Part shown: positions 19,452 through 34,078 of the stretch, piece by piece
How the letters are laid out: every line of letters starts with the position of its first letter
Numbering within the stretch: the first letter of the stretch is position 1
Source of the DNA: Candidatus Pacearchaeota archaeon
GTDB taxonomy: Archaea > Nanobdellota > Nanobdellia > Pacearchaeales > GW2011-AR1
NCBI GenBank assembly: GCA_041649045.1
Contig: JBAZNV010000001.1
Coordinates: 19,756-83,755 of the forward strand
Reading direction: 5' to 3'
Length of the DNA stretch: 64,000 nucleotides
Notes under the pieces: generated by a model
The model's input: only the letters and a program-made list of their open reading frames with translations
Databases searched by the model: none
Told to the model about the DNA's origin: nothing
Program-made: the position numbers and the translations under genes

Positions 19452-19467
19452 ATAGCCCCTCCAGGAT
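19452..19467 (+). repeat. att-like direct repeat (distal copy of tRNA-Gln 3' end)
   Basis: Exact 16-mer match to tRNA-Gln 3' terminus. Confidence 0.6.
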
Positions 19468-27022: not shown

Positions 27023-27367
27023 TTAAATCCATTTTTTAAAACTCTCAATTATTGGACTCCACAAATCTCCATTTCCTATTTTTGAGATTATCTCGTTAAT
27101 CGGAGCATAAACAATTTTTTTTACTGATTCATTTTCTTCGATATACTCTTCGCTATCGTCTCCAATTTTTGCAAAACATATAATCTGTTTTTCTTTCTTG
27201 TTGTCATCAATTTTATTTATCATTAAAAATTTCAGCTCGCACCCTTGAATATTTTTTTTAATTTCCTCGATGCATTCTCGATTTGCCGTTTCAATAACTG
27301 ATTCACCTTCCTCGACATGTCCTCCAGGAAATCCCAAATATCTCTTTTTGAGCGTCAGTAAATGCAT
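27023..27367 (-). CDS. NUDIX hydrolase, probably N-terminally truncated
   Basis: Nudix box [25 protein letters not shown] begins at residue 12; closed frame immediately upstream. Confidence 0.55.
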
Positions 27368-27506
27368 CGGATATATATTTTAAAAAAATTAGCCCAAGAA
27401 CCACGTGCTTATATTCTGCAGCATCCATATTGCTTTGAAGCTTATCCGCTGCTTGCCAAAGCTTCTGCTCAAACCCGATTTCCCCATTCGTTTGCGACAT
27501 GTTCAA
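27303..27506 (-). pseudogene. hsdM: fragment: N-terminal domain of type I restriction-modification methylase HsdM
   Basis: [36 protein letters not shown] matches HsdM_N consensus; ORF then diverges and stops; no N6-MTase domain follows. Confidence 0.6.
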
Positions 27507-27603: not shown

Positions 27604-28653
27604 TTGACATTTAAATGTCCGATCAACATTATGGAAATAAAATATACATTTTGGAACAATAAAGGAGGCACTGGGAAAACTAGCCTTGCTTTTCAGTCTA
27701 TTACAAGATATGCTGAAAAATACCCGGATAAAAAAATTTTAGCAATAGATATTTGCCCACAAGCCAATTTGTCTGAATTAATGTTAGGCGGATTAAACAA
27801 TCATGGTAGCGAGAGATTATTATATTGTCATGGACAGGTGCCGCGATGCAGCCTTGGGGGGTATTTTCAACTTCGTTTACCTTCTCCGTATATTCCACCA
27901 GATTTTAATGCTCATGATTTTATAACCAAACCGAGCACATATAATGGTGCGATACCTTCAAATATAGACTTGGTATGTGGAGATCCTTTATTAGAATTAC
28001 AATCAAATGCCGTAAATAGTTTAGCCAACAACTCTATACCTGGCACAAATACTTGGATTGGAGTTGTTGATTGGTTAAATGATTTTTTAAAAAAAATTAA
28101 AGATGACTATGATGTTGTTTTTATGGACTGCAATCCAAGTTTTTCTATGTATACGCAAATTGCATTAGCAACGACAGATAGAATTATTTTGCCTGTAATG
28201 GCAGACGATTCTTCACGTCGTGCAATTCAAAATGCATTATCTCTTGTATTCGGATTGAGGCTTCCTTCAGAGATATATGCTAATTACGCTTTCGCTACAA
28301 AACTCAAGGAATCAAAACGCAAGCTTCCAAAAGTACATTTAATAGTAAAGAATCGTTTAACTCAATACATGGTACCCGCATCCGCCTATGCTGCCGTATT
28401 GAATACAATTGAAAGTGATATCCGAGGATTATTATTAACAAATTCAGAAATTTTTTCATTTACAGACGTTAATGAAGGATTTGTAGAAATTAGAGATTTC
28501 CAAACTACTGGAGTTGTTGCATTTGCCAAGGGATTGCCATTTTCAAAAGTGGATATTGGAAAGCAAACTATTGGAGGACATAGAGTCCAAGTAAATCGAA
28601 ATTATTTAACAAATAGCAAGAATGCAATAGAGTTGTTAGTTAATAAATTATAA
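27604..28653 (+). CDS. ParA/MinD-family ATPase with about 100-aa C-terminal extension
   Basis: Deviant Walker A NKGGTGKTS, ILAIDICPQANLSE, DYDVVFMDCNPS; probable start at internal Met 27631. Confidence 0.65.
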   Translation: MTFKCPINIMEIKYTFWNNKGGTGKTSLAFQSITRYAEKYPDKKILAIDICPQANLSELMLGGLNNHGSERLLYCHGQVPRCSLGGYFQLRLPSPYIPPDFNAHDFITKPSTYNGAIPSNIDLVCGDPLLELQSNAVNSLANNSIPGTNTWIGVVDWLNDFLKKIKDDYDVVFMDCNPSFSMYTQIALATTDRIILPVMADDSSRRAIQNALSLVFGLRLPSEIYANYAFATKLKESKRKLPKVHLIVKNRLTQYMVPASAYAAVLNTIESDIRGLLLTNSEIFSFTDVNEGFVEIRDFQTTGVVAFAKGLPFSKVDIGKQTIGGHRVQVNRNYLTNSKNAIELLVNKL

Positions 28654-28914
28654 AATTAATTTTTTTGCTTCTTTCAAAACATCCTTGCCTTTTTTTGTTA
28701 TTTTATAAAACTTAAAAACTCTATCTCCGGGATTTTTACAAACAATAAGTTTTTTCTCAATTAATTCCTTTAATGCCCTTGACGTATGTGCCTTGTACAT
28801 CCCCGTTGTTTTCATTAGTTCTACTTGGCTTCTTTCTCTTTCGTTTAACAATTCTAATAACTCCAATCTCCTTTGTCCTCTCGCAACATAGCTAATCAAA
28901 CTTGAATCACCCAT
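28648..28914 (-). CDS. winged-helix transcriptional regulator (ArsR/MarR-like)
   Basis: RLELLELLNERERSQVELMKTTGMYKAHTSRALKELIEKKLI wHTH pattern. Confidence 0.55.
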   Translation of the reverse strand: MGDSSLISYVARGQRRLELLELLNERERSQVELMKTTGMYKAHTSRALKELIEKKLIVCKNPGDRVFKFYKITKKGKDVLKEAKKLIL

Positions 28915-29008: not shown

Positions 29009-29473
29009 ATGCAAGAAAAAAATAAATCGTGGTTTCGACGACATAAAATTCTCGGATCAATAATTGGTTTTTTTCTTTTTGTTATTGGAATTGGGATAAT
29101 ATCAAATCTAAACTCAGAAAATTCTCCCACGCCTGAGCATAATTACATTTGCCCAGAACTTTCAAATTCAAAAATTTTAGCTTACGATAGTTTTGTTCAG
29201 TTATGGAATGTCGAAGTTTCTGTTTATAAAACTAATAACACCGAGGTAATTTATCCTTATAGTCTAACTTCAACTATAATTTATTGCAATCCGGCTACAG
29301 AAGAAGGTCAAAATGCCAACTGGGTTTATTGTGGAGATACCTTTAGACCTATTATCGCTCAATATACCGACAAATCAGGAAGTATCATTAGGAAACGAAG
29401 TGTGGAAATAATTCTTGACAAAAATACGAAAGAATACGTTTCTACAAAATGCGACAGTTATAATTTATTGTAA
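29009..29473 (+). CDS. hypothetical secreted/membrane-anchored protein
   Basis: N-terminal TM/signal; no domain. Confidence 0.4.
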   Translation: MQEKNKSWFRRHKILGSIIGFFLFVIGIGIISNLNSENSPTPEHNYICPELSNSKILAYDSFVQLWNVEVSVYKTNNTEVIYPYSLTSTIIYCNPATEEGQNANWVYCGDTFRPIIAQYTDKSGSIIRKRSVEIILDKNTKEYVSTKCDSYNLL

Positions 29474-29483
29474 ATTTGATTTT

Positions 29484-30437
29484 ATGGAAAATAAAATAAC
29501 ATTCAAAAAACTCGTGGAACTTGTTCTTGAAGAAGCAAAGCAACCATTAACGCCTTTGGAAATTTGGGGAAAGGCTCAGGAAATGCATTTAACTGAAAAA
29601 CTTGGAACCGTCGGTAAAACACCTCATCTGACAATTAGTGCTCAACTTTATGTCGATATTCGCGATAATCCGAAATCTCCTTTTTACCAATTCAGTAGTC
29701 GCCCTGGAAGATTTTTCCTTAAAAAATACAAATCCGGTTTTAAACCCGAGGAAATACCCCTCGAAGAAGAAACAGAAGAAACAAAAACAAAATACCACGA
29801 ACGCGACCTGCATCCTCTTCTTGTAAAATTTGTTAATTCCGCTCCAAACTTCAAAGCTCACGTAAAAACAATTTACCATGAAATAGCGATGAGAAATAAA
29901 AAGGGATTGAATAAATGGCTATATCCTGATTTGGTCGGTGTTCATCTACCATTCCTCGATTTTGATGTACATACATTACAAGTGCAGAAGGAACTTTACT
30001 GGACCGCAGTTCGTTTTTTTAGTTTCGAAATGAAAAAGGAATTAAACATTGGAAATCTCCGTGAATGTTATTTTCAGGCTGTCTCAAACTCTAACTGGGC
30101 AAATGAAGGCTATCTTGTTGTTCTTAACATAATTGATCAGGATGGTGAATTAATGTCGGAGCTTAGAAGATTAAATAATGCCTTTGGAATCGGAGTTATT
30201 CAACTAAATTCCATTGAAATAAATGAGAGCGAGATAATTCTTCCAGCCAAGATAAAACAGGAACTTGATTGGGATACAATTGATTTATTACTGAAAAAAA
30301 ACGGAAATTTCAAAGAGTTCATGGAAATCGTCAAAGGCGACATTACGCTTGGCAAAATTTCAAACAAAGACAATTATGACTCTATAATTCCGGATGAAGC
30401 TTTTCAAGAGTATATTGAGGAGAAGGGGATTGTTTAA
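29484..30437 (+). CDS. HARE-HTH domain fused to PD-(D/E)xK restriction-endonuclease-like nuclease domain
   Basis: HARE-HTH: LTPLEIWGKAQEM...GKTPHLTISAQLYVDIRDNPKSPFYQFSSRPGRFFL; nuclease motifs HERD, YPDLVGV, FEMKK. Confidence 0.6.
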   Translation: MENKITFKKLVELVLEEAKQPLTPLEIWGKAQEMHLTEKLGTVGKTPHLTISAQLYVDIRDNPKSPFYQFSSRPGRFFLKKYKSGFKPEEIPLEEETEETKTKYHERDLHPLLVKFVNSAPNFKAHVKTIYHEIAMRNKKGLNKWLYPDLVGVHLPFLDFDVHTLQVQKELYWTAVRFFSFEMKKELNIGNLRECYFQAVSNSNWANEGYLVVLNIIDQDGELMSELRRLNNAFGIGVIQLNSIEINESEIILPAKIKQELDWDTIDLLLKKNGNFKEFMEIVKGDITLGKISNKDNYDSIIPDEAFQEYIEEKGIV

Positions 30438-30525
30438 GTCAATATCCGACCAAAATTCCCGACCCCTGTGAACATTGAGAAATATCTGATTTTTTCATGT
30501 TTCATTCAATTCTACGCTGAAAAAA

Positions 30526-30544
30526 GCGAATATTCGCGAATATT
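30526..30544. promoter_or_regulatory. overlapping perfect palindromes (gcgaatattcgc / aatattcgcgaatatt) between convergent nuclease and methylase genes, followed by T-run
   Basis: Read directly from sequence; possible bidirectional terminator or operator. Confidence 0.4.
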
Positions 30545-30552
30545 TTCATTTT

Positions 30553-31200
30553 TTACCTCAGTTTCATTGGGTTGTTTAGTTCGTCTTTTGCTCTATTTCC
30601 TGTCAAATTTTCCCATCTTTCTATGATATGTGAGCAAAAATTGGGATCAATCTCTATTAAAAAGCAGTTTCTTTTCTTGTTTTCGCATGCTATTAGTGTT
30701 GAACCGCTACCGCCAAAAACATCAAGTACGTTTTCTTCTTGCCTTGTGCTGTTTATAATAAAGTGTTCTGCTAATTTTGCGGGTTTCTGGGTTGGATGGA
30801 TGTATGTGTTTGTCCCCTGTCCCCTCTGAATTTCTTTTCTTTGTAATAAAAATAAAGCATTGGCTCGTATTGTGAATGATAATCTCTTGTTGGTATTGAG
30901 AAGCCGTTCTTTACCCACATAATAAATGTTGGCCTGTATCCCAGGTTCTTCATACACCAAGGGTATATTTGTTCGATTTGATTTGTTCCGCAGCACATAT
31001 AAACTGCGCCTTTTACGATTCCTGTGTTGATTAAATCGAGCAATGTTGTTATCTGGAAGTTTACATCATTCATTATTCCGCCAAGCATATTTTTACTCCT
31101 TCCGCCTTTTCTTCTTGCTTCTGGTATGTAGTTTACGCTGTATGGCGGGTCTGTCCATCATATCTGCTTTCTGCCCGGAAGAAAGCTTCATTGCAGTTAT
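30553..31200 (-). pseudogene. beta-class (N6A/N4C) DNA methyltransferase disrupted by at least two frameshifts
   Basis: Motifs in three frames: DPPYS (upstream of annotated ATG, preceded by in-frame TGA), IMWVKNG...HSQYEPMLYF (frame A), HPTQKP...DVFGGSGST (frame B); shift within G-run agaggggacaggggac. Confidence 0.65.
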
Positions 31201-31274
31201 CTGCAAATTGAACAATGCAAAAATTGAACAGTAAACGTATAACTTATATGGAAACGTTAATAAAAATAAAAATT

Positions 31275-31775
31275 TTAAAATGGAGTGGTTATTTTTTGCT
31301 CTTTTTCTAATTTAAGTACCCAACTTATTATTTCAATATCTTTTCCAAGTTCGGTTAATATAAAATAGTGGGTCTTTGCTGCGAAATACTCCATTTGTCG
31401 CTTAGCCATTTTTGAACTCCATTCCTTAAATTTATCCATCACAATTTTATTATCTCCTTGTAAGTTGTCTACATTCCAAATATCCATTATCGAAATTTGT
31501 TTCAAAAGTCCTAATTCAATAAGGGAATAAAGATAATTATAAGCAGTGTTCTTTGACATAAATAATTTTGTTACAAATTCACCAATTCTTCCTGGAGAAT
31601 TATTAAGTAAAACTCCATACGTTTTCCTCAGTTTACTTTTCTCTTTTAACATTCTTTTAATTAACTCTTTTTTATAAGAATGACCTTCCATTGTTTCTTT
31701 GATTTCCAACGCAAGTTCTTCAAATGTCCTTGAGCCCTTCTCTCTTTTTTCAATTCTTATGTTTGGCACATCCAT
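31275..31775 (-). CDS. hypothetical protein with putative winged helix (element-encoded regulator/replication protein)
   Basis: Start at internal Met with GGAGG upstream; TAYNYLYSLIELGLLKQ helix. Confidence 0.4.
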   Translation of the reverse strand: MDVPNIRIEKREKGSRTFEELALEIKETMEGHSYKKELIKRMLKEKSKLRKTYGVLLNNSPGRIGEFVTKLFMSKNTAYNYLYSLIELGLLKQISIMDIWNVDNLQGDNKIVMDKFKEWSSKMAKRQMEYFAAKTHYFILTELGKDIEIISWVLKLEKEQKITTPF

Positions 31776-31831
31776 CTTCCTTGCCCTCCTTCTCCATAAT
31801 CTCAATCATCTTTTGCACAAGAGGATTCAGT

Positions 31832-31972
31832 TCACTTCTCTTCATCTCTACTATCCCCCTCTTCAATGAGAAATCTTATTGTGTCGCCTCGAGTTCGTCG
31901 AAATTTTTTTGCTAACCTGTCGAGCTTTTCTCTCGTTGCTGTATCTAACCTGAAATTAAATGTTGTATTCAT
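31832..31972 (-). CDS. ribbon-helix-helix (CopG/Arc family) protein, 46 aa
   Basis: Not in ORF track (below the 60-aa cutoff); MNTTFNFRLDTATREKLDRLAKKFRRTRGDTIRFLIEEGDSRDEEK fits beta-alpha-alpha RHH. Confidence 0.55.
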   Translation of the reverse strand: MNTTFNFRLDTATREKLDRLAKKFRRTRGDTIRFLIEEGDSRDEEK

Positions 31973-32025: not shown

Positions 32026-33243
32026 TTATTCCACCAGGTTAATAATTTGCTTTAGAGAGCTGACCACGTCCTTTCTTTCTCTTAAAAAACTCATCAGAGC
32101 TACTTCGGTGCTTTCAATTCTTGATTTGTTTACTTCAACTATTACCTCTCCTTCAAGTCTTCTGACCTCAAGTTGTTTTTCCATCTCTTGTTGCTTTCTA
32201 AGTAACTCTGCCATCGCCGAGCTTATAACATCAAGCTTTGTTTTCAATTCTTTGTTTTCATTCTCGGTTTTTACAAAATTATCTCCGGCAAGTTTTATTG
32301 TCTCATCATCTATCAATCCATTCATGTCAATATATCTATCTGGCATTTTTGATGATGCTGACCAGCCATATCTGTAAGAAATCTGAAATCTGTTAAGATG
32401 GTTCGCGTAATAAGTCGCTGATCCGTGCCTGAAAGTATGAGGTGAAATCATTCTACTAAGAAATTGTTTACCCATTCTGTTTGTATATTTTCTCAGGGTC
32501 CCGTAATTTATCGTACATAAAAAATCCTCTTCTCCAAATTTATTCATTTGCAGATATTCGTCAATTATTTTCGGATACAGCGGAAGATTTATTGTTCTCG
32601 GTTTAGTTTTTGAAATTCTTATTCTGACTTTGTAAACTCCATTTTCTTTCACGATGTCGCTCCTTTTGATGTTATAAAATTCTTCGATTCTTGCTCCACT
32701 GTCAAATAAAACAGCTAAAATAAATCGGTAAATTAATTTAGACGAATTTTCTATCAATCGGTCGTTCTCTTGTTTGCTCAAACTTCTGACTTCCGGCATT
32801 CTTGTACTTGTGTCGATGTATTGGACGAGTTTGGGATAATTCTCTTTGTCTCCGAGAAGATATTTGTAATATTTTCTGATAAACTTTTTTATTGTAGACT
32901 GCGTTTCCCATGTGTAAGGATTCCCTTTGGAAGATTTTACAATTCCTCTTTCAAGATTTAGAATAAATGTGTTCATATCGTCTTCTGTGACCTTATCGAA
33001 CGGTTTCTTTAACCACTCGCGATCCATATTCAAAAGTATACCAAGCATTCGCTGCAGCCTTCCAGGCTTGATTTTTCTCTTCTGTCCTTTAAGAATTGTC
33101 TTTCCGATTTCTGCGTCGTATAAAAACTGTAAAATCAAATTTCTGTTCTCAGGAATTAATAACCTGGTCGACCCTGATCTTAGTTTTTCCAACGATCGAT
33201 AATATTTATCTGGGTTTTGGAGTCTGACTATTTTGTCGTCCAT
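32026..33243 (-). CDS. int: tyrosine-type site-specific recombinase/integrase
   Basis: C-terminal catalytic residues: R...HTFRHGSAT...RYGW...Y; adjacent to tRNA gene. Confidence 0.8.
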   Translation of the reverse strand: MDDKIVRLQNPDKYYRSLEKLRSGSTRLLIPENRNLILQFLYDAEIGKTILKGQKRKIKPGRLQRMLGILLNMDREWLKKPFDKVTEDDMNTFILNLERGIVKSSKGNPYTWETQSTIKKFIRKYYKYLLGDKENYPKLVQYIDTSTRMPEVRSLSKQENDRLIENSSKLIYRFILAVLFDSGARIEEFYNIKRSDIVKENGVYKVRIRISKTKPRTINLPLYPKIIDEYLQMNKFGEEDFLCTINYGTLRKYTNRMGKQFLSRMISPHTFRHGSATYYANHLNRFQISYRYGWSASSKMPDRYIDMNGLIDDETIKLAGDNFVKTENENKELKTKLDVISSAMAELLRKQQEMEKQLEVRRLEGEVIVEVNKSRIESTEVALMSFLRERKDVVSSLKQIINLVE

Positions 33244-33327: not shown

Positions 33328-33343
33328 ATAGCCCCTCCAGGAT
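33328..33343 (+). repeat. att-like direct repeat (proximal copy, overlapping tRNA-Gln 3' end)
   Basis: Identical 16-mer to 19452..19467. Confidence 0.6.
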
Positions 33344-33401
33344 TCGAACCTGGGTCACGGGAGTCAGAGTCCCGTATCCTTGACCGCTAGACTAAAGGGC
33401 T
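33329..33401 (-). tRNA. tRNA-Gln (anticodon CUG)
   Basis: Manual fold: acceptor AGCCCUU/AGGGGCU, anticodon stem CGGGA/UCCCG loop CUCUGAC, T-loop GGUUCGAAUCC. Confidence 0.75.
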
Positions 33402-33556
33402 ATAGAAAATTCAGAAAAAGAAAGTTTAAAAGTTTAGTGGACCTTTAAATTCATTTGTAAAATTTTAGAGAAACTTGCTTGCGTGAATGGCAATGATTGT
33501 GAAAATTAGCGCATTCTTTTAAAAAACTTTATAATGTATGTTGGTTTTAATATTTC

Positions 33557-34078
33557 ATGAAAATTCAGGCGACGTTAATTTCTGAAAAGATAAGTTCAAA
33601 TTCAAGGGAGGCTTATGATTTATTCGAGAGCCAGAGGTTTGGTGAGAGAGACGGGGAAAAAGTAGTTTATATGCTTGTCGAGGCATTTTATTTATTTAAG
33701 GATAAGAAAATGGAAGTTATTGATAGCAAGAACAGGGTTTTTTCTGAGAAGGAAATTTTAAAGAAATTTGAAAAGATCGACAAGAAATTTTTGGTCAACT
33801 ATTATGTGTTTAGAGATTTGAGAAAGAAAGGTTATGTTGTAAAAACGGCTTTGAAATTTGGTGCAGAATTCAGGGTCTATGAAAGAGGGGAGAAGGTCGG
33901 TGAAGAGCATTCGAAATGGATTTGTTTCCCTGTTTCCGAGAATAAGACAATGACGTGGCATGATTTTTCTTCTAAAAACAGAGTTGCACATTCGACAAAA
34001 AAGAATCTTCTTATTGCAGTGGTTGATGAAGAAAACGATGTTACTTATTTTGAAATCAAATGGATGAGGGTTGGATAA
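33557..34078 (+). CDS. endA: tRNA-splicing (intron) endonuclease
   Basis: YYVFRDLRKKGYVVKTALKFGAEFRVYERG...HSKWICF catalytic domain. Confidence 0.7.
   Translation: MKIQATLISEKISSNSREAYDLFESQRFGERDGEKVVYMLVEAFYLFKDKKMEVIDSKNRVFSEKEILKKFEKIDKKFLVNYYVFRDLRKKGYVVKTALKFGAEFRVYERGEKVGEEHSKWICFPVSENKTMTWHDFSSKNRVAHSTKKNLLIAVVDEENDVTYFEIKWMRVG

Follow-up and report, generated by a model that had tools for sequence, protein, structure and literature searches.

Gene content of the locus

The window (the whole stretch of 64,000 nucleotides of Candidatus Pacearchaeota DNA analysed here) carries on its plus strand an uninterrupted gene for a 317-residue protein, in which a HARE-HTH domain is followed by a PD-(D/E)xK nuclease core and then by a helical C-terminal extension. 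Converging on it from the minus strand is a beta-class methylase gene that is broken in several places, and around the two lie small winged-HTH genes, a type I methylase remnant, an integrase gene and a tRNA gene (Table 1).

Table 1. Coordinates of the genes, domains, catalytic codons and lesions at the nuclease–methylase locus, with the evidence for each
Feature	Position	Strand	Evidence or remark
HsdM remnant (type I methylase N-terminal fragment, 67 aa)	27303..27506	-	Pfam HsdM_N, E 3.9e-14
88-aa winged-HTH gene, HVO_A0261_N-like	28648..28914	-	Pfam
HrgA/DUF511/COG2958-family nuclease gene	29484..30437	+	uninterrupted ORF, 317 aa
HARE-HTH (winged-helix) domain	29499..29705	+	aa 6-74, Pfam E 5.7e-13
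PD-(D/E)xK nuclease core	29793..30131	+	aa ~104-216
Nuclease E106 codon	29799-29801	+	
Nuclease D149 codon	29928-29930	+	
Nuclease E182 codon	30027-30029	+	
Nuclease K184 codon	30033-30035	+	
Beta-class methylase pseudogene	30553-~31272	-	Pfam N6_N4_Mtase, homologue alignments
3' segment of pseudogene	30553..30813	-	HPTQKP, FGGSGST; stop at 30555-30553
Motif I FGGSGST	about 30719-30699	-	three-frame view
Out-of-frame junction ACAAACA	30807..30813	-	34-nt gap and switch of best homologue
Middle segment of pseudogene	30807..31157	-	DPPY, IMWVKNG, YEPMLYF, RGDRGQT
Motif IV DPPY	31151-31140	-	three-frame view
2-nt deletion site	31157..31158	-	ATGATATGG -> ATGATGG, DNA alignment with three intact homologues
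Degenerate 5' end of pseudogene	31159..31272	-	protein and DNA alignments, three-frame view
176-aa winged-HTH protein	31275..31805	-	weak Pfam HTH_IclR / SoFic-like_C matches
Tyrosine integrase	32026..33243	-	Pfam Phage_integrase, E 9.9e-10
tRNA-Gln(CTG)	33328..33402	-	ARAGORN

The nuclease is an intact member of the HrgA family

The assignment of the plus-strand protein as HARE-HTH plus PD-(D/E)xK, made in the initial annotation, is borne out by the Pfam match and by the conservation of the catalytic columns. In a family alignment of 43 sequences, the columns of HERD (residues 105–108), YPDLVGV (containing D149) and FEMKK (containing E182 and K184) are either invariant or at least 90% conserved, and Q198 is a further key residue, invariant like E106, D149, E182 and K184. 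The same annotation had named missing catalytic residues as a point that would count against its reading; they are all present and conserved, and its description of the nuclease as intact (a single 317-aa ORF with E106, D149 and E182-x-K184 conserved) holds. An AlphaFold model of the protein has a pLDDT of 86, and the top matches of a structure search with this model are restriction-endonuclease-fold proteins, with AspBHI and the Mrr-like nuclease of LlaBIII among the fold matches.

The protein is identical to P0001, annotated from a Candidatus Pacearchaeota metagenome-assembled genome, and has 4472 homologues at E⩽1e-3. It aligns with a Helicobacter 'HrgA protein' at 35% identity over 97% coverage (tblastn, E 4e-50), and is 51% identical to P0117 from Turicibacter, which carries the NCBI name 'COG2958 family protein'. 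The Pfam search returned HARE-HTH as the sole match, with no match to DUF511; sequence searches of PDB, NCBIfam and PADLOC gave nothing useful, PADLOC having no model that covers the HrgA-family nuclease, and the phage collection searched contained no match. At the sequence level, the winged helix, the E...(P)D...ExK signature, the full-length similarity and the stand-alone gene place the protein in the HrgA/DUF511/COG2958 family. It shares with this family its length (about 310–320 aa), a C-terminal PD-(D/E)xK domain with all three motifs, an N-terminal winged helix related to the N-domain of RNAP delta, and the lack of a positionally conserved methylase. It differs in its host, a DPANN archaeon (Candidatus Pacearchaeota), and thereby adds a new DPANN-archaeal member to the family; its neighbour also differs, being a dead viral beta-class methylase and not the Dam-like hpyIIIM.

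The dN/dS ratios between the nuclease gene and its relatives do not exceed 0.11, and lie at 0.03–0.06 where dS could be estimated (dS being saturated in three of the five pairs). As judged by these ratios and the unbroken reading frame, the nuclease gene is intact and under purifying selection.

Lesions of the methylase pseudogene

On the minus strand from 30553 to 31215, the motifs follow one another in the beta-class order, with DPPY (motif IV) before FGGSGST (motif I), interrupted by frame changes. The Pfam family N6_N4_Mtase is matched with an E value of 7e-18 by the 3' ORF and of 8.5e-21 by the stitched sequence, and PADLOC MTase_II also matches the methylase. The call of a beta-class enzyme in the initial annotation is therefore correct, on both the Pfam match and the motif order, and so is the view that the gene has been disrupted more than once, since it lacks a start, has lost 2 nt and contains a junction at which 34 nt are missing.

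The exact arrangement of the frames is different from that first described. The motifs had been placed in three frames; however, DPPYS and IMWVKNG...YEPMLYF share a single frame with no stop between them, such that the named blocks use two frames only. The pseudogene as a whole consists of three reading segments in two frames, and an uninterrupted ORF with all motifs is not present. The frame of HPTQKP...FGGSGST also holds the ...KLSSGQKADM stretch, which is all that is recognisable of the 5' end, and a third frame would be called for only if the degenerate 5' end reads differently. No start codon is found at the position where the homologues show ATG.

The first break is a loss of 2 nt (ATGAT[AT]GG to ATGATGG), which shifts the frame and creates a TGA at 31160-31158, before W-T-D-P-P-Y; intact homologues read ADMIW(T/M)DPPY at this site in the protein alignment. 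A TGA in front of DPPYS and upstream of the annotated ATG (that of the ORF 30771-31088) had been correctly noted. The second break had been attributed to a shift inside the G4/G4 run (30814-30824), but this run natively encodes R-G-(D/S/T)-R-G-Q and is present in intact homologues too; the break is at 30805-30813, immediately 3' of the run. In the nucleotide alignment, 34 nt are absent at the junction relative to the P0121-type methylase, and in the protein alignment 12–13 conserved residues (DVWFFKRRPTG...) are absent. Slippage in the G4 run, or in a 7-bp GGGGACA repeat, was also considered as the source of the frameshift and was ruled out, since the run is native coding and adding or removing one unit leaves the frame broken.

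By these alignments the lesions far exceed chance ORF breaks, the flanks retaining 85% and 76% protein identity to intact methylases, and the gene is a true pseudogene, startless and carrying a 2-nt deletion and an out-of-frame junction.

Sequencing error and recoding do not account for the lesions

A homopolymer error of sequencing or assembly in a methylase that is really intact might be suspected, since the window is part of a metagenome-assembled genome and one of the breaks is close to two G4 runs. This explanation is highly improbable, because none of the lesions is a change in homopolymer length: the 2-nt loss falls in ATAT, the junction is chimeric with a 34-nt gap, the start is missing, and so are the 12–13 conserved residues. 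Furthermore, an independently assembled megahit contig from ENA matches over 8954 bp at 100% identity, and the remaining window consists of dense, unbroken ORFs, with 60 long ORFs making up 83% of it.

Even less credible is expression of the methylase by recoding, that is, by read-through or reassignment of TGA together with programmed frameshifting. The in-frame TGA immediately 5' of WTDPPY and the frame changes, which are of the -1/+1 type, would fit such a mechanism; however, the close homologues are all single ORFs without shift or stop sites, TGA terminates 11 of the 60 long ORFs in the window, and a perfect frameshift would still yield a product without the physically missing conserved segment, from a gene without a start codon. 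Given the identical independent assembly and the use of TGA as a normal stop, both sequencing error and recoding can be set aside. Of the three explanations offered in the initial annotation, the one that stays compatible with the evidence is a re-purposed nuclease, whether type IV-like or modification-dependent.

The pseudogene is a chimera of two methylases

Upstream of the junction, the pseudogene is 83–85% identical to P0121, P0127 and P0123 over a tblastn HSP of 126 aa, of which about 118 (W40 to T157) are truly homologous; the intact homologues of this 5' part are 243–252 aa long, and the middle segment is traced to a virus-type methylase of 245–252 aa. Downstream of the junction, the identity to the P0121-type methylase is only about 50%, and BLASTP instead finds 66 of 87 residues (76%) identical to residues 303–389 of P0189, a ParB-type (ParB-fusion) methylase whose C-terminus matches the 3' segment. 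The second break was also considered as a simple 34-nt deletion, but the change of best homologue to P0189 reveals a chimeric junction instead, and a simple deletion is less parsimonious.

The 5' two-thirds of the pseudogene derive from a viral methylase of the 245-aa type and the remaining third, at the 3' end, from a ParB-type methylase; they are joined out of frame across 7 nt of microhomology. The simplest origin of such a chimera would be a deletion between tandem methylase genes, as tailed viruses carry near their terminase, a history that we infer. Alternatively, an older mosaic methylase gene may have lost the 34 nt afterwards, for which the partial C-terminal mosaicism of L104 can be cited. 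If it did arise by deletion between paralogues, the pseudogene neatly illustrates the decay of viral methylase genes that lie in tandem.

Viral relatives and the surrounding element

Among intact genes, those most closely related to the methylase come from contigs of tailed viruses, where they adjoin terminase and portal genes. Terminase and Mu_F-portal genes closely follow those of P0129 and P0127, with P0129 belonging to an array of tandem methylases, and nine IMG/VR viral contigs hold relatives at 56–70% identity. Compared with the orphan beta-class N6/N4 methylases that phages carry by the terminase (including ParB-methylase fusions), the pseudogene has segments that are 85% and 76% identical and the same motif order of IV before I, and differs in being dead, with no start, two frame breaks and a chimeric junction.

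No viral structural genes are left beside the pseudogene. The 176-aa winged-HTH gene lies on the same strand as the pseudogene and the integrase gene and may encode a regulator of the element, and the tRNA-Gln(CTG) gene, which adjoins the integrase, is the probable integration target. A 16-bp copy of the 3' end of this tRNA is present at 19452-19467, 13.9 kb away; no nearer copy occurs at 26–31 kb, and the 16-bp repeat is the only candidate for the far boundary. In the viral loci with intact methylases, no matches were found to the integrase, wHTH, ParA or nuclease genes of the window, nor was a homologue of the 176-aa protein seen in the viral loci examined, and no tRNA genes were found beside the integrases of related loci. 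We regard the methylase pseudogene as part of a decayed integrative element, with an integrase and small regulators, at tRNA-Gln.

Neighbourhoods of the nuclease family lack a conserved methylase gene

The two genes had first been described as a decayed R-M module. According to such an interpretation, the nuclease would be the cognate endonuclease of the adjacent methylase, which has decayed, leaving the nuclease inactive or re-purposed. The tail-to-tail gene order is indeed typical of many R-M pairs, the literature names HARE-HTH–REase fusions among the restriction components of systems that modify N6A (PMC4738411), and hrgA adjoins hpyIIIM in H. pylori (PMC3045609). The likeness of the locus to a classical type II R-M pair extends to convergent nuclease and methylase genes less than 120 bp apart; in contrast to such a pair, the two families are evolutionarily unlinked, with a solitary nuclease family on one side and a dead, viral methylase on the other.

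HrgA-family genes occur in at least 582 species genomes, and we have surveyed the neighbourhood in 76 genomes. The immediate neighbours, 139 in all, represent 127 Pfam families, N6_N4_Mtase being seen three times and N6_Mtase twice. When the 477 ORFs lying up to four genes to either side were clustered, the largest cluster was found at only 4 of the 76 loci; no conserved partner gene was found across these genomes. The same conclusion, that DUF511 has no positionally conserved methylase, has been published before (PMC3045609). Neither relatives nor other pseudogenes of the window methylase family were found near HrgA-family genes at 89 loci. For the closest nuclease relatives (71–82% identity), the genes at the convergent downstream position are unrelated to methylases at all nine loci. 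The convergent downstream genes of 217–225 aa in L002–L007 were checked as possible intact methylases and rejected, as the alignment shows no relation. The surroundings of HrgA-family loci are variable and often rich in defence genes or mobile elements, with defence genes being a minority among the neighbours.

These surveys, the viral relatives of the methylase, the chimeric nature of the pseudogene itself, and the retention of all catalytic residues under purifying selection make a former R-M pair very unlikely. With the adjacent methylase not intact and its linkage not conserved, the type II reading is largely refuted. The lethality of an endonuclease without its methylase, raised as a paradox in the initial annotation, does not arise when the two were never paired, and an intact nuclease beside a dead methylase is indeed no paradox when the nuclease family is solitary, which corrects the locus at the level of annotation.

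On the other side of the nuclease, the 88-aa winged-HTH gene is the sole neighbour kept beside the nuclease in its close archaeal relatives, and is 52% identical to the equivalent divergent gene in L005–L007 and 27–35% identical in L001–L004. The 67-aa HsdM fragment is 69% identical to the N-terminus of a full-length HsdM, encoded in L007 on the corresponding side of the nuclease gene. HrgA-family members travel between bacteria and archaea as one-gene modules and do not depend on a cognate methylase.

A solitary, probably modification-sensing nuclease

Taken together, we favour, with a probability of about 0.8, the reading that an intact HrgA-type nuclease lies beside a dead viral methylase to which it is unrelated and with which it never formed an R-M pair, neither recoding nor sequencing error being involved. 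The two would then be unrelated items lying tail to tail, and, since they were never a matched pair, the locus would be an ordinary scar of a decaying mobile element. From its architecture, the lack of a methylase partner and the published predictions for HARE-HTH, the solitary nuclease is probably modification-sensing. Its winged helix would read a feature of the DNA, probably a base modification on foreign DNA, and would then direct the Mg2+-dependent nuclease to cut the modified DNA. In such a type IV-like, modification-sensing mode of restriction, the host DNA would need no protective methylation. A role of HARE-HTH as reader of modified DNA has been predicted (PMC4738411, PMC10853773, PMC11037411). 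In H. pylori, active GATC methylation is usually present alongside hrgA (PMC2588503), which argues that the HrgA family is not simply dependent on m6A in GATC.

An unlikely extension is that HrgA-family proteins are methylation-dependent nucleases and that selection has left the shattered array of viral methylases as a 'conflict scar': the nuclease would attack the methyl mark of the incoming viral methylase or methylases, and cells would have survived only with these inactivated, so that the decay was selected and not neutral. The architecture of a putative modification reader plus nuclease with no methylase partner would suit this view, as would the several independent lesions, one being a deletion that spans two methylases, and the report of inactive HpyIIIM in some hrgA-carrying H. 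pylori strains (PMC3045609). However, according to a second paper hrgA rarely inactivates M.HpyAIII (PMC2588503), about 7 of the 76 HrgA-family loci have an intact ORF resembling a beta-class methylase within ±4 genes, the 89 loci hold no further pseudogene of the methylase family, and the adjacent hsdM is truncated too, which fits a general neutral decay of the island. If this is true, hrgA, an orphan gene for 20 years, would gain a function, and the locus would be a natural record of conflict between a type IV enzyme and a methylase in DPANN archaea. The wider value of the locus would come only if HrgA-type proteins were tested as modification-dependent nucleases.

As for the solitary modification-sensing nuclease favoured here, it resembles known type IV enzymes (DpnI, wH-fusion endonucleases, MspJI/AspBHI and TagI) in joining a DNA or modification reader and a nuclease in one polypeptide, and in having intact catalytic residues and no cognate methylase. 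It differs from them in that its reader is a HARE-type winged helix, a predicted reader, and from DpnI in that the order of its domains is reversed.

The nuclease belongs to the HrgA/COG2958 family

The nuclease is a new archaeal member of the known but uncharacterised HrgA/COG2958 family, since it matches Helicobacter genes annotated 'HrgA protein' (tblastn, plasmids; 35% identity, 97% coverage, E 4e-50) and is 51% identical to a Turicibacter protein named 'COG2958 family protein'. In H. pylori, hrgA takes the place of the restriction gene hpyIIIR. The family is found in at least 582 species-representative genomes of Bacteroidota, Clostridia, spirochaetes, methanogens and DPANN archaea. COG2958 has been listed with the PD-(D/E)XK families of unknown function (Steczkiewicz et al. 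2012), HARE-HTH-REase fusions were predicted by the Aravind group to be modification-discriminating restriction enzymes, and the HARE-HTH ligand is unproven (Helbrecht et al. 2024).

As the initial annotation had stated, the ORF is uninterrupted and carries the motifs quoted there. The HARE-HTH covers residues 6-74 (Pfam), and a 43-sequence alignment showed E106-R-D-x-H110, H132-E133, P148, E182-x-K184 and Q198 to be invariant, D149 to be at least 90% conserved, and a QAVSNSxWAxEGYL block to be conserved in the family. In the AlphaFold model (pLDDT 86), a winged helix and a disordered linker precede an alpha-beta-beta-beta-alpha-beta core, in which D149 opens the second strand and the third carries ExK. 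Against relatives dN is ~0.13 with saturated dS, and dN/dS is 0.03-0.11 where computable. The nuclease looks catalytically competent and maintained.

The adjoining methylase is an ordinary pseudogene

The methylase is broken, as first described, although the details differ. Read on the minus strand, what is left of the N-terminus, ending in KLSSGQKADM, lies in the first frame; W-T-D-P-P-Y-S, IMWVKNG, YEPMLYF and RGDRGQT all lie in the second without an intervening stop; and YIHPTQKP...FGGSGST...stop returns to the first. DPPYS and IMWVKNG, previously assigned to different frames, therefore share one. Lesions were mapped by nucleotide alignment with three intact homologues. A 2-nt loss at 31157/31158 (ATGATATGG to ATGATGG) creates the TGA at 31160-31158, and a 34-nt gap directly follows GGACAAAC at ~30806. 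Over the first ~100 nt the alignment to the homologues is lost, and a start codon is absent from this stretch. The G4/G4 run at 30814-30824, formerly taken as the site of a frameshift, encodes the conserved R-G-x-R-G-Q, and the frame change lies elsewhere.

A sequencing artefact is ruled out, since an independent megahit assembly in ENA has a 295-kb contig that matches 8954 bp across the locus at 100% identity, and 60 non-overlapping ORFs of at least 120 aa cover 83% of the window. Recoding is likewise ruled out, as TGA is a normal stop, terminating 11 of these 60 ORFs; nor could frameshifting or read-through bring back the 12-13 lost conserved residues or the start.

The remnant points to tandem viral methylases

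Intact homologues (243-252 aa) are 66-70% identical overall. The middle segment of the pseudogene reaches 83-85%, but the 3' segment only ~50%; the latter is closer to the end of a different protein, the 389-aa ParB-type methylase P0189, with whose C-terminus it shares 76% identity (66/87). Homologue switch and frame break coincide at the 7-nt string ACAAACA (30807-30813, minus strand), which is compatible with both parents. By these comparisons, the remnant is a chimera of a 245-aa viral type (85%) and a ParB type (76%), and its simplest history would be that two methylase genes stood in tandem and a deletion joined them. Such a precursor has precedent: the intact homologue P0129 comes last in a row of three N6_N4 methylase genes on 25-60-kb contigs, just upstream of terminase and Mu-F-type portal genes. 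Another homologue, P0127, also adjoins a portal gene, and IMG/VR holds nine viral contigs with methylase relatives (56-70% identity). The gene is therefore an orphan methylase of viral type and did not serve as the modification partner in an R-M pair.

In viral contigs L008/L009 (2128-6738) and L098/L099, a C5 methylase gene and three consecutive N6_N4 genes (ParB-fusion, 218 aa, 245 aa) lie directly upstream of terminase, preceded by glycosyltransferase genes; this cluster is a dense anti-restriction/DNA-modification block.

HrgA-type nucleases have no recurrent methylase partner

Across 76 loci, the 139 immediate neighbours of HrgA-family genes represent 127 Pfam families, led by ResIII (7), DEAD (5), SWI2_SNF2 (4), N6_N4_Mtase (3) and HSDR_N (3). 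PADLOC found at most three type II methylases and six mad2 matches. When the 477 ORFs within ±4 genes were clustered, no cluster occurred in more than four loci; beta-class methylase-like ORFs lay within this range in ~7 loci, and relatives of the present methylase family, intact or broken, near none of 89. The family never needs a methylase, so the supposed paradox that a REase without its MTase should be lethal disappears, and the juxtaposition is coincidental. Of the three explanations first offered, only a re-purposed nuclease finds support: the enzyme would most plausibly be a type IV-like one that senses modification. This solitary nuclease adjoins the final remnant of an integrative or viral element in which tandem orphan methylases were formerly present. 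A history in which the nuclease attacks the mark of the methylases, and these were inactivated for that reason, is unlikely: the H. pylori literature on such inactivation is mixed, no enrichment of methylase pseudogenes showed up near the 89 HrgA-family loci, and hsdM nearby has likewise been reduced to a stump, in keeping with a general decay of the island.

Among archaea, the nine closest relatives (71-82% identity) have a gene for an unrelated protein of 204-251 aa at the convergent downstream position, capsid-like by eye in one. Their sole conserved neighbour is a small upstream wHTH; type I R-M, DUF2779, GmrSD and integrase genes also occur nearby. The HVO_A0261_N-type wHTH, divergently upstream in relatives' loci L001-L007 (27-52% identity), is possibly a dedicated regulator of archaeal HrgA-type genes, and does not recur as a partner in the bacterial loci. 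In L094 (5212-7264, minus strand), whose nuclease is 80% identical, the two downstream genes resemble, by eye, those for a major capsid protein (251 aa) and a protease/scaffold fusion (431 aa), which suggests that viruses or integrative elements repeatedly land on this side of the nuclease gene.

Both genes lie inside an accessory island

Nuclease and methylase remnant both lie inside an accessory island of this low-GC (34%) DPANN sequence. The same nuclease protein, without any difference, has been annotated from a Candidatus Pacearchaeota MAG, on a contig of 415 kb.

Features of the accessory island and its surroundings
Feature	Position	Strand	Remark
Direct repeat, distant copy	19452-19467		16 bp
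NUDIX ORF	27023-27367		overlaps HsdM fragment
HsdM N-terminal fragment	27303-27506	-	67 aa
ParA-like ATPase (ParA/AAA_31-type partition ATPase)	27604-28653	+	TTG start
Winged-HTH	28648-28914	-	88 aa, HVO_A0261_N-type
Unknown ORF	29009-29473	+	154 aa
Nuclease	29484-30437	+	
Methylase remnant	30553-~31272	-	
wHTH	31275-31805	-	176 aa
ORF (MNTTFNFRLDTATREKLDRLAKKF...)	31832-31972	-	46 aa, between 176-aa wHTH and integrase
Tyrosine integrase	32026-33243	-	
tRNA-Gln	33328-33402	-	
Direct repeat, tRNA copy	33328-33343		16 bp
tRNA-splicing endonuclease, archaeal	33557-34078		

The HsdM stump shares 69% identity with the beginning of the full-length HsdM that flanks the nuclease gene of the related locus L007 on the corresponding side; a deletion has apparently removed a type I R-M system from the present locus. 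The tRNA-Gln 3' end recurs as an exact direct repeat (ATAGCCCCTCCAGGAT; blastn-short E 7e-4), whose distant copy is a possible far att site, which would give an island of 13.9 kb. Between the repeats, however, there are also housekeeping-looking genes (transketolase, deacetylase, PTPS, HD, NUDIX, APH). The ParA-like ATPase hints at a plasmid-derived or integrated-plasmid component, and the 46-aa ORF looks like a ribbon-helix-helix/CopG-type regulator.
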